In this document: piece after piece, positions 12,014-13,276 of the stretch
How the letters are laid out: every line of letters starts with the position of its first letter
Numbering within the stretch: the first letter of the stretch is position 1
Source of the DNA: Candidatus Heimdallarchaeota archaeon
GTDB lineage: Archaea > Asgardarchaeota > Heimdallarchaeia > JABLTI01
NCBI GenBank assembly: GCA_030614005.1
Contig: JAUWKS010000007.1
Span: 46,610 to 78,609 of the forward strand
Reading direction: 5' to 3'
DNA: 32,000 nt
The notes under the pieces: model-generated
What the model was told of the DNA's origin: nothing
Database searches by the model: none
The model's input: the letters and a program-made list of their open reading frames with translations, nothing else
Made by a program: the position numbers and the translations under genes

Positions 12014-13276
12014 TTGTACAAAGTGATAGATATTGGCTTAGAAGCGCTTTTAATAATGGATAAAGCCGGCATACCTTTACTATTTCAAAAACTAGATCCA
12101 AAACGAACAGATATCGAACCTATTTTACTATCTGGTTTTCTAACTGCTGTAAAGGCTTTTTCTATTGAGATAATCGATGATACTATTACAGATTTCCATG
12201 TTGATTATGGGAAAAGATTAATTACAATCCTCTCAGGACACAAGATTGTTTTCGCAGCAATACACAGTCATAAATCAACTGAGAGAATAATCCCTGTTTT
12301 AGCACCTTTATTGAAAGAATTTGAAAGCCAATACTATAAAGAAAACCATATCGGTGAATCAGGTCCATTAGAAAAGTATGAACCATTTAGAGAACGAATA
12401 GCTACTGTAATGGGTATTAACAATCCTTCGTTAGATTGGATCCCATTCTACACTGAAATTGATGAAGCAAAAGTAACTGATGATAGTAAAATAAAGAATT
12501 TCATTGATAATCACTATTCTATTAAGGATATTGTAAACCACTGTAATCTCTCTGAATCAGAAGTATTAAATGAAATATCTAAGTTGTGGGCTATAGGTGC
12601 AATACGATTCCGGAATATTTTAACTCAAAGAGATATTGTCATTTCAACAAGTAAAATTGCAAGCTATTTGCAACCTTCAACAATTGAATGGAAAGAACTC
12701 TATAAGGAATTTCCAAACCTAATAAATATGATTCCCCATATTTTGAATCATCTGGATGGACAAACAACAGTAGGACACATTATAGATGATTTAGATACAG
12801 AAGGAATTGAGAATGTTTATTGGCTTATGGATTATTTATACATCAATGATGCTCTATCTATGCTTTCACCCGAAAAAAGAAGAATTCTAATGGCTAAAGA
12901 AATTTTACAAAAAAGCTTAGAAATTGCTGCTGATATTTATTCTGTCGAGGAAACCATTTGGCACCTTAAATCTGTGTTAAATGAGATACGTTCTCCAGAA
13001 ATAATTTCACAGATAAGACTACTGAAGGAGAACTGGTCCATTGACTATAGTTTTTTGGTATACGAAGGTTTGAGTCCCGAGAAAGTCTTACAATTGTATG
13101 ATATTTGGTTAGAAATTCTTAGAATGTTTATCTTTTCATTGGATGAGAAGAAAAGAAAAAAATATATCGAGTACCTAACTGAAATGCTTGATTTTGATTT
13201 CTTCGAAAAATATCGAAGTGAAGACATGGATGGTTTCGAAGAGTTTGCCTTTTGGTTGGAATTAATATTTATTTGA
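12014..13276 (+). CDS. Longin/roadblock-like N-terminal domain + tandem winged-helix-like repeats + helical C-terminus (NPRL2-like architecture)
   Basis: LLIMDKAGIPLL and ILLSGFLTAVKAFSIE are typical of Asgard longin-like domains. Two repeats: FIDNHYSIKDI..L....V...ISKLWAIGAI and HLDGQTTVGHII....VYWLMDYLYINDAL. TTG start (ATG 12056 is an alternative). Confidence 0.65.
   Translation: MYKVIDIGLEALLIMDKAGIPLLFQKLDPKRTDIEPILLSGFLTAVKAFSIEIIDDTITDFHVDYGKRLITILSGHKIVFAAIHSHKSTERIIPVLAPLLKEFESQYYKENHIGESGPLEKYEPFRERIATVMGINNPSLDWIPFYTEIDEAKVTDDSKIKNFIDNHYSIKDIVNHCNLSESEVLNEISKLWAIGAIRFRNILTQRDIVISTSKIASYLQPSTIEWKELYKEFPNLINMIPHILNHLDGQTTVGHIIDDLDTEGIENVYWLMDYLYINDALSMLSPEKRRILMAKEILQKSLEIAADIYSVEETIWHLKSVLNEIRSPEIISQIRLLKENWSIDYSFLVYEGLSPEKVLQLYDIWLEILRMFIFSLDEKKRKKYIEYLTEMLDFDFFEKYRSEDMDGFEEFAFWLELIFI

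Follow-up and report, generated by a model that had tools for sequence, protein, structure and literature searches.

A distant relative of NPRL2 in Heimdall-class archaea, encoded with a predicted small partner and an ODP-family di-iron protein

An archaeal NPRL2-like protein

We analysed a stretch of 32,000 nucleotides from a Candidatus Heimdallarchaeota archaeon (assembly GCA_030614005.1, contig JAUWKS010000007.1, positions 46,610 to 78,609 of the forward strand; hereafter the window), and describe here one of its genes, at 12023–13276, which encodes a protein composed of a longin domain, a pair of winged helices and a C-terminal helical domain. Sequence profiles and predicted structure show that this protein is a real but distant relative of NPRL2. 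GATOR1, to which NPRL2 belongs, is the GTPase-activating protein (GAP) for the Rag GTPases upstream of TORC1, and its origin is obscure. On balance we think it probable that the archaeal protein acts as the large subunit in an Asgard complex of two subunits, which is related to NPRL2 and NPRL3 and serves as a platform for a small GTPase, and that in this organism the complex receives an oxygen or iron input from an ODP-family protein. The parts of the locus are as follows.

12023–13276 (+): large subunit, NPRL2-like, 417 residues plus stop; GTG start, GGAG at 12009–12012; profile and fold searches
12023–12427 (+): longin domain, residues 1–135; structural alignment, DSSP, conservation
12428–12868 (+): tandem winged helices, residues 136–209 and 210–282; profile and structural matches to NPRL2/Npr2
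12869–13273 (+): helical C-terminal domain, residues 283–417; AlphaFold2 model, conserved motif GFEEFxFWLE
13291–14022 (+): gene for an ODP-family di-iron protein with a metallo-beta-lactamase fold; Pfam ODP PF19583, 171.5 bits
14013–14339 (+): predicted small subunit, 108 residues, of no known family, with a basic C-terminal tail; conserved linkage

Sequence profiles single out NPRL2

A profile built from an alignment of 44 homologues of the window protein (profile A1) has human NPRL2 as its best match among all PDB sequences (E = 2.5e-5; a tagged construct of NPRL2, 2.9e-5). Yeast Npr2 is the second protein (E = 0.017), and the next match, which is not an NPR2 protein, has E = 0.43. HMMER aligns profile positions 79–232 with human NPRL2 residues 118–267, and a profile of the C-terminal part alone retrieves NPRL2 (residues 189–266, E = 1.1e-4) and Npr2 (E = 0.0085). 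The initial annotation of this DNA had proposed an alignment to NPRL2 after the longin domain, quoting a human sequence for it; HMMER returns the same alignment (WIP/VPVF ... IDG ... TSKI/TPKV), so the quoted sequence was correct over that stretch. Identity between the window protein and NPRL2 is about 12–16%.

Pfam models see the relationship faintly. HTH_NPRL3 matches 16 of the 44 members, one of them above the cut-off (P0013, 34 bits against 27.2), and NPR2 (PF06218) matches seven weakly at profile positions 223–288, the best reaching 18.3 bits (E = 0.0011) over positions 226–288 only, for a gathering cut-off of 27.5 bits.

The tandem winged helices are arranged as in NPRL2

The AlphaFold2 model of the whole protein (predicted local distance difference test (pLDDT) 83.5, predicted template modelling score 0.70) consists of a longin domain (residues 1–135), a winged helix (about 136–209), a second winged helix (about 210–282) that contains HLDGQTTVGHII, and a helical domain (283–417). 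A longin domain followed by tandem winged helices, with HLDGQTTVGHII in the second repeat, had been read from the letters before, and all three domains appear in the model. The secondary structure of the longin domain assigned by DSSP runs β1-β2-α1-β3-β4-β5-α2-α3. In VIA-align comparisons its residues 3–135 superpose on longins with Z-scores of 11–13.4 (root-mean-square deviation (rmsd) 2.6–3.5 over 113–126 residues), the matches including Sec22b, COPI zeta, Fuzzy, MglB and the longin/roadblock domains of LAMTOR.

In a Foldseek search of the PDB the first seven matches are GATOR1 or SEAC chains of NPRL2/Npr2 size (E = 3e-6 to 3.5e-4); 8adl_S is named as Npr2, and the other six are judged by chain length to be NPRL2/Npr2. 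Below them rank chains of NPRL3 size and generic longin/roadblock proteins. A search of Swiss-Prot models is headed by six NPRL2/Npr2 orthologues (human, fission yeast, mouse, cow, fly and budding yeast), with query residues 6–281 aligned to human NPRL2 residues 7–326, and NPRL3 comes after NPRL2. Comparison of an AlphaFold model with GATOR1 structures, as the initial annotation had proposed, thus places NPRL2 orthologues first and NPRL3 behind them. Whole-model VIA-align was discarded as a test of NPRL2 kinship: generic longins dominate its output, and NPRL2 is not discriminated.

The whole model aligns globally to NPRL2 with TM-scores of only about 0.3 and a large rmsd, since its domains differ in orientation from those of NPRL2. 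We therefore folded residues 136–417 alone (pLDDT 90.7) and compared the result exhaustively with 48,161 PDB chains using VIA-align, a search that is independent of Foldseek. NPRL2 (8fw5_B) ranks first (Z 11.4, rmsd 3.5, 147 residues), with residues 1–148 of this model aligned to residues 170–328 of the chain, and Npr2 (8adl_S) ranks second (Z 9.7, 144 residues). The third match is a single winged helix (Z 7.6, 64 residues). The protein accordingly has an N-terminal longin domain and a tandem winged-helix region arranged as in NPRL2 residues ~170–328, and it is the tandem winged-helix part that carries NPRL2-specific sequence and structural similarity. Profile and structure searches are thus led by NPRL2 and Npr2 and are not confined to generic MarR/ArsR winged helices or unrelated longins. 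The helical domain at residues 283–417 has no counterpart in the matched part of NPRL2, and its best PDB matches by VIA-align are helical bundles (Z ≤ 6).

A small protein is predicted to bind the large subunit

The 108-residue product of the gene at 14013–14339 belongs to no Pfam family, has no PDB profile match below E = 0.3, finds only unnamed neighbours in the ESM Atlas, and shows no similarity to the large subunit by hhalign (probability 0.3). Its association with the large subunit is nevertheless constant. We compared 79 loci from species genomes and two from assemblies, which together hold 76 full-length genes of the large-subunit family. The small domain is fused to the C terminus of the large subunit in 42 of the 76 (giving proteins of 525–545 residues), and such fused proteins are likewise called in public sets (for example, P0145 and P0148). 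In 25 of the 76 the small gene is the next gene, in 5, forming the window's clade, the ODP gene lies between, and in 1 the order is ODP-small-large; the few genes without a small gene lie at contig ends. The fused genes form one clade (Shimodaira–Hasegawa-like approximate likelihood ratio test support 100). Members that are only 21–26% identical to the window protein also have the small gene, detected with a hidden Markov model (HMM) at E = 1e-23 to 1e-32.

The predicted complex of the large and small proteins has a score of 0.71, whereas the best of three controls has 0.02. Of 80 solved complexes 58 reach that mark, as do 2 of 110 mismatched pairs; these counts hold only roughly here, since custom alignments were used. 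Repeated runs share at least 86% of contacts, and the pLDDT of the partner is at least 75. The predicted interface joins residues 382–417 of the large subunit (the GFEEFxFWLE helices) to residues 18, 22–23 and 68–93 of the small protein (the PAAKLT-LLILS helix), and it coincides with the most conserved motifs of both proteins; the large-subunit residues that are invariant near the C terminus are D401, E406, F408, W411, L412 and E413. No similar solved complex turned up in these searches. The constant adjacency of the genes, their fusion within a single clade and the score of the complex relative to its controls lead us to predict that the small protein binds the C-terminal helices of the large subunit.

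The small protein ends in a polybasic tail, KSSKKKKSKYRQK. Separately encoded small proteins from Thor genomes also have KKK-rich ends, and the fused versions end directly after a conserved LPxE.

The pair is linked to an ODP gene in Heimdall-class genomes and to a GTPase gene in Thor genomes

The initial annotation had given the large-subunit gene as 12014–13276 (+). That open reading frame exists, with 420 codons from a TTG in the window's list of open reading frames, and the peptides quoted from it are present in its translation, but the start is likely to be the GTG at 12023: close homologues are all 417 residues long, and GGAG (12009–12012) lies 10 nucleotides upstream of the GTG and only 1 nucleotide upstream of the TTG. 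The large-subunit stop is separated by 14 nucleotides from the start of the ODP gene, which is preceded by GGAGG (13279–13283), and the small-subunit reading frame, with GGAGG at 14001–14005, overlaps the end of the ODP gene by 10 nucleotides. The two subunit genes thus flank the ODP gene and are probably co-translated with it.

ODP is an oxygen-binding di-iron sensor which in Treponema is encoded beside, and genetically coupled to, its signalling partner (PMC7666581). The Treponema denticola ODP and its receptor (TDE2498/TDE2496) resemble the window locus in that the sensor gene lies beside the signalling protein that is modulated (PMC7666581). The systems differ in that the neighbours in the window are a longin/winged-helix protein and a small protein instead of a chemoreceptor, and the window locus has no chemotaxis genes.

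Throughout the Heimdall class the ODP gene accompanies the large and small pair. Of 82 genomes of the window's class, 14 have an ODP orthologue, and the small gene directly adjoins it in 13 of these; within the window's genus the same 4 of 11 genomes hold all three genes. A closed genome from another family shows the window order, with a very divergent large subunit (E = 1.7e-28, found only with a broader HMM) followed by ODP and then the small gene, and divergent metagenomic members have the order ODP-small-large. This linkage suggests an oxygen or iron input in Heimdall-class members.

Thor clades lack the ODP gene at these loci and have a GTPase gene instead. It encodes a 171-residue Ras-family protein and lies on the same strand downstream of the pair in at least 56 loci, starting a median of 73 nucleotides beyond the fused gene, or following the small gene directly. 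The Thor protein scores 157 bits on PF00071 and only 19 bits on Gtr1_RagA. The window's genome has no clear orthologue of it, the best candidates being 35–37% identical, with many similar scores. One Thor metagenome-assembled genome (MAG), JAWAQK01, carries both arrangements side by side (L092:601-6598): the first comprises ODP, a small gene and a very divergent large subunit, and the second a large subunit whose sequence is divided between two frames, together with its own small gene and, further on, a GTPase gene. The Thor GTPase (L060:6651-7163; about 56 loci, for example L018:9058-9570) has an unusual switch II, WDLGSQDF, in which the glycine is shifted by one position relative to the DTAGQE of Ras and Rab, and a P-loop that reads GSSAVGKTS.

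Distribution and earlier reports of the family

A search of 5.8 billion proteins returns 79 homologues (32–100% identity), every one of them annotated as a hypothetical protein. Where a source is named, it is an Asgard MAG (Heimdall, Thor or Prometheo), with one exception labelled Bathyarchaeia, and the nearest relatives (87% identity) come from MAGs labelled Candidatus Heimdallarchaeota. A profile search of the same set at E ≤ 10 found only Asgard proteins among the 8000 best word-sharing candidates that were scored, and an exhaustive HMMER scan of 1.84 billion cluster representatives gave only 68 matches, nearly all of about 410–420 residues or fragments. The family is present in 78 of 399 Asgard species genomes. 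It is common in Thor-type families (66 of 89 genomes), patchy in the window's class and found in none of the 135 genomes of the largest family.

The window's genome, which is 90% complete, holds a single full-length copy and no NPRL3-like paralogue; its other matches are longin domains only. These longin domains are 26–34% identical and sit inside open frames of 700–1215 residues (C10:13858-14322, C87:3494-3811, C71, C117 and C73; loci L002-L005 and L007). The genome encodes many small GTPases. Rag/Gtr-like GTPases and roadblock genes, which the initial annotation had suggested looking for, are both present, as Gtr1/RagA-type GTPases (best 116 bits, in a 411-residue frame) and 10 Roadblock genes. 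Many Thor genomes have two to four paralogues of the family (for example, CP070658.1, loci L048 and L068; PRDH01, loci L027 and L063; and genome G335, with 4 matches), as a rule one whose small gene is separate and one or two that are fused to theirs; this paralogy recalls the NPRL2/NPRL3 duplication but arose within archaea.

The initial annotation had allowed that a general Asgard longin link might already be reported, and this is so. According to Liu et al. 2020/2021 (bioRxiv 10.1101/2020.10.19.343400), Asgard archaea have NPRL2-like longin proteins, some fused to two-component signalling domains, and the longin-containing large frames of the window's genome are probably such fusions. The Loki-B35 paper also lists an 'NPRL2-like longin domain' among eukaryotic signature proteins. 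The architecture (a longin domain with an NPRL2-like C-terminal domain) and distribution of the family of Liu et al. match those of the window family. The family-level link to NPRL2 was thus already published in 2021, and the window gene is a new Heimdall-class member. The passages of Liu et al. that were consulted are silent on members from the Heimdall class, on the small partner and its fusion, on the ODP gene and on the Ras-family GTPase that lies downstream. Since the homology had been described, what is added here is the partner subunit and the operon context: the small partner, the ODP gene that accompanies it in the Heimdall class, and the Ras-family GTPase of Thor relatives go beyond the literature found.

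What the complex may do

Longin and roadblock domains are typically platforms for GTPases (PMC8534245). A GTPase platform is the most likely function of the complex, given this general role and the gene link to a GTPase in Thor genomes. In the mechanism we favour, the large subunit, whose core of longin domain and two winged helices is homologous, by sequence profile and predicted structure, to NPRL2/NPRL3 of GATOR1/SEACIT, would hold the 108-residue protein through its extra C-terminal helices, and its longin-type platform would bind a small GTPase and set or read the nucleotide state. In the window's lineage an oxygen or iron input would come from ODP, and the gene for the GTPase would lie elsewhere in the genome. 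A stronger version, in which the three genes at 12023–14339 form a sensor-to-GTPase-regulator module with ODP binding the complex of NPRL2-like and small proteins and so controlling a small GTPase, is possible but doubtful.

Several observations weigh against a GTPase platform of NPRL2 descent. Taken by itself, the longin domain is at least as similar to generic longins as to NPRL2, a longin-only profile fails to find NPRL2 among PDB sequences (chance matches at E ≥ 0.16), and the whole-model TM-scores to NPRL2 are low, as described above. The window protein on its own matches no Pfam or NCBIfam family beyond noise and retrieves nothing from the PDB sequences with phmmer. In the window's genome, Pfam NPR2 (in six-frame translation), NPR3 and IML1 (DEPDC5) have no match at E ≤ 1. 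In Thor the linked GTPase is of the Ras and not of the Rag type, Heimdall-type loci have no GTPase gene, and the longin loops have no arginine conserved across the family. The binding of the small subunit, too, is a prediction.

We regard it as unlikely that the protein is a functional GATOR1-like GAP, with a catalytic arginine of the longin domain (such as R65) serving a Rag/Gtr GTPase as Arg78 of NPRL2 serves RagA. We take R78-N79 of NPRL2 to lie in the β4–β5 turn. The corresponding turn of the archaeal protein reads S71-G72-x-x, with no conserved arginine, and the family lacks an R-N pair like human R78-N79 and yeast R84-N85, which form the finger of NPRL2/Npr2 (PMC8534245, PMC12999518). 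R65, in the motif Y62-G63-x-R65, is invariant in 44 of 44 close homologues, which would suit a catalytic residue, as would the standing of NPRL2 as the closest solved relative and the presence of Gtr1/RagA-type GTPases in the genome. In more divergent members with the same operon, however, the position holds K, Q, S or E. By strand count R65 falls in the β3–β4 turn, at the end of the sheet opposite the β1–β2 turn; its placement relative to R78 is by strand count and conservation. The β1–β2 turn itself carries a nearly invariant G16-I17-P18, retained as G-x-P in most divergent members, and this conservation would again suit a GATOR1-like GAP. This G-x-P turn has one residue more than the GP motif reported before β2 in NPRL2, FLCN, SMCR8 and C9orf72, and another Asgard longin family combines a GP motif with an arginine finger (2025 Traffic paper, PMC12290439). 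The genome has neither an NPRL3-like paralogue nor DEPDC5/Iml1, and the GTPase of the Thor operon is of the Ras family, which speaks further against a GATOR1-like GAP. A G-x-P after β1 may also be generic to longin and roadblock domains.

A GATOR1-style arginine finger is not evident in the archaeal protein. The lack of one would not exclude GAP activity, because MglB is a GAP without an arginine finger, but Rag-GAP activity in the GATOR1 sense, though possible, is unsupported. Homology does not show function, and a role as GAP, guanine nucleotide exchange factor (GEF) or effector may each apply. The proposal of the initial annotation, a relative of the Rag-GAP subunits, thus stands as homology to NPRL2 and does not extend to Rag-GAP activity.

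Equally improbable, in our estimate, is a role in the window's lineage as an adaptor for ODP signalling with no GTPase, which might tether ODP to a membrane by way of the small protein's basic tail or link it to other longin signalling proteins. The Heimdall-type loci without a GTPase gene would fit such an adaptor, as would the KSSKKKKSKYRQK end of the small protein, the longin domains inside large frames elsewhere in the genome, and the fusions of NPRL2-like longins to two-component signalling domains described by Liu et al. But the invariant residues recur in close Thor relatives, whose genes are tightly linked to that of a GTPase, and GTPase platforms are the usual role of longin and roadblock domains.

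A winged-helix transcription factor, whose longin domain would sense a ligand or partner and which would regulate the ODP operon, could account for the two winged helices, the weak MarR, TrmB, IclR and HTH matches of divergent members, one AlphaFold DB cluster match automatically named an ArsR-family regulator and the ESM Atlas neighbours with HTH_47 or TrmB, but it is very unlikely: the pair matches NPRL2/Npr2 over 144–147 residues at the Z-scores given above, whereas DNA-binding winged helices reach about 5 over about 50 residues; the winged helices of NPRL2/Npr2 serve protein contacts; both archaeal winged helices are acidic (net charge −4 and −8, pI 4.9 and 4.3; family medians −3.5 and −3), which argues against DNA binding; and an operon link to a GTPase and a fused small domain are atypical of such regulators.

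Neighbouring genes

Upstream of the locus, at 8971–11825 (−), lie genes for two divergent Fe-S (4Fe-4S dicluster) proteins of 333 and 362 residues and for a HEAT-repeat protein. The 362-residue Fe-S protein and the HEAT protein keep their position in relatives at 60–87% identity (L019, L021 and the P0015 locus) and were not found beside more distant family members. Downstream, the frame at 14795–17548 (+) encodes a probable surface protein of 917 residues, which has a signal-like N-terminal segment, LVIVD repeats, an fn3 domain and, at its C terminus, a transmembrane anchor. A series of reading frames in the same orientation follows at 19225–29712 (+); the matching genes of the syntenic P0015 locus belong to complex I and [NiFe]-hydrogenase families (Oxidored_q4, q6, Complex1_30kDa, NiFeSe_Hases/49kDa and NADHdh). 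The G+C content of the window is 32–42%, and it is thus AT-rich.

Comparison with known systems and implications

With NPRL2/Npr2, the catalytic subunit of GATOR1/SEACIT (PDB entries 6CES, 7T3A/B, 8FW5, 8ADL and 9H4Q), the archaeal protein shares an N-terminal longin domain and, behind it, two winged helices whose order and mutual arrangement are the same. It differs in scoring below the Pfam NPR2 cut-off, in having no finger of the R78-N79 type that can be placed, and in its extra 135-residue helical C-terminal domain, predicted to bind a separate 108-residue subunit. The setting differs from that of GATOR1 as well: the genome has no NPRL3 paralogue or DEPDC5, the GTPase linked in relatives is Ras-type instead of Rag-type, and the TOR pathway is, to our knowledge, lacking. 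NPRL3/Npr3 shares the longin and winged-helix layout, its HTH_NPRL3 model matches part of the family and it comes second in fold searches, although with weaker scores than NPRL2. The archaeal family may predate the split between NPRL2 and NPRL3. In FLCN-FNIP2, C9orf72-SMCR8, Mon1-Ccz1 and MglB, too, the GTPase platform is a longin or roadblock fold, and MglB and LAMTOR domains match the archaeal N-terminal domain at Z ~11; by contrast, these systems lack tandem winged helices, and their C-terminal partners are DENN domains or none.

The archaeal relative is small and looks soluble, and its Thor version lies in one operon with the small partner and a cognate Ras-like GTPase. Because that operon encodes all three, three recombinant proteins would be enough to assay GAP, GEF or effector activity. 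In the Heimdall version the GTPase gene is exchanged for that of an oxygen or iron sensor, a hint at the signal that the ancestral module may have read, and the relation of this lineage to oxygen matters for models of eukaryote origins. If the three genes of the window do form a sensor-to-regulator module, the logic of nutrient sensor to GATOR1 to Rag would have been present in Heimdall-class archaea before TOR, and oxygen sensing would be tied to the ancestry of a eukaryotic growth-control complex.

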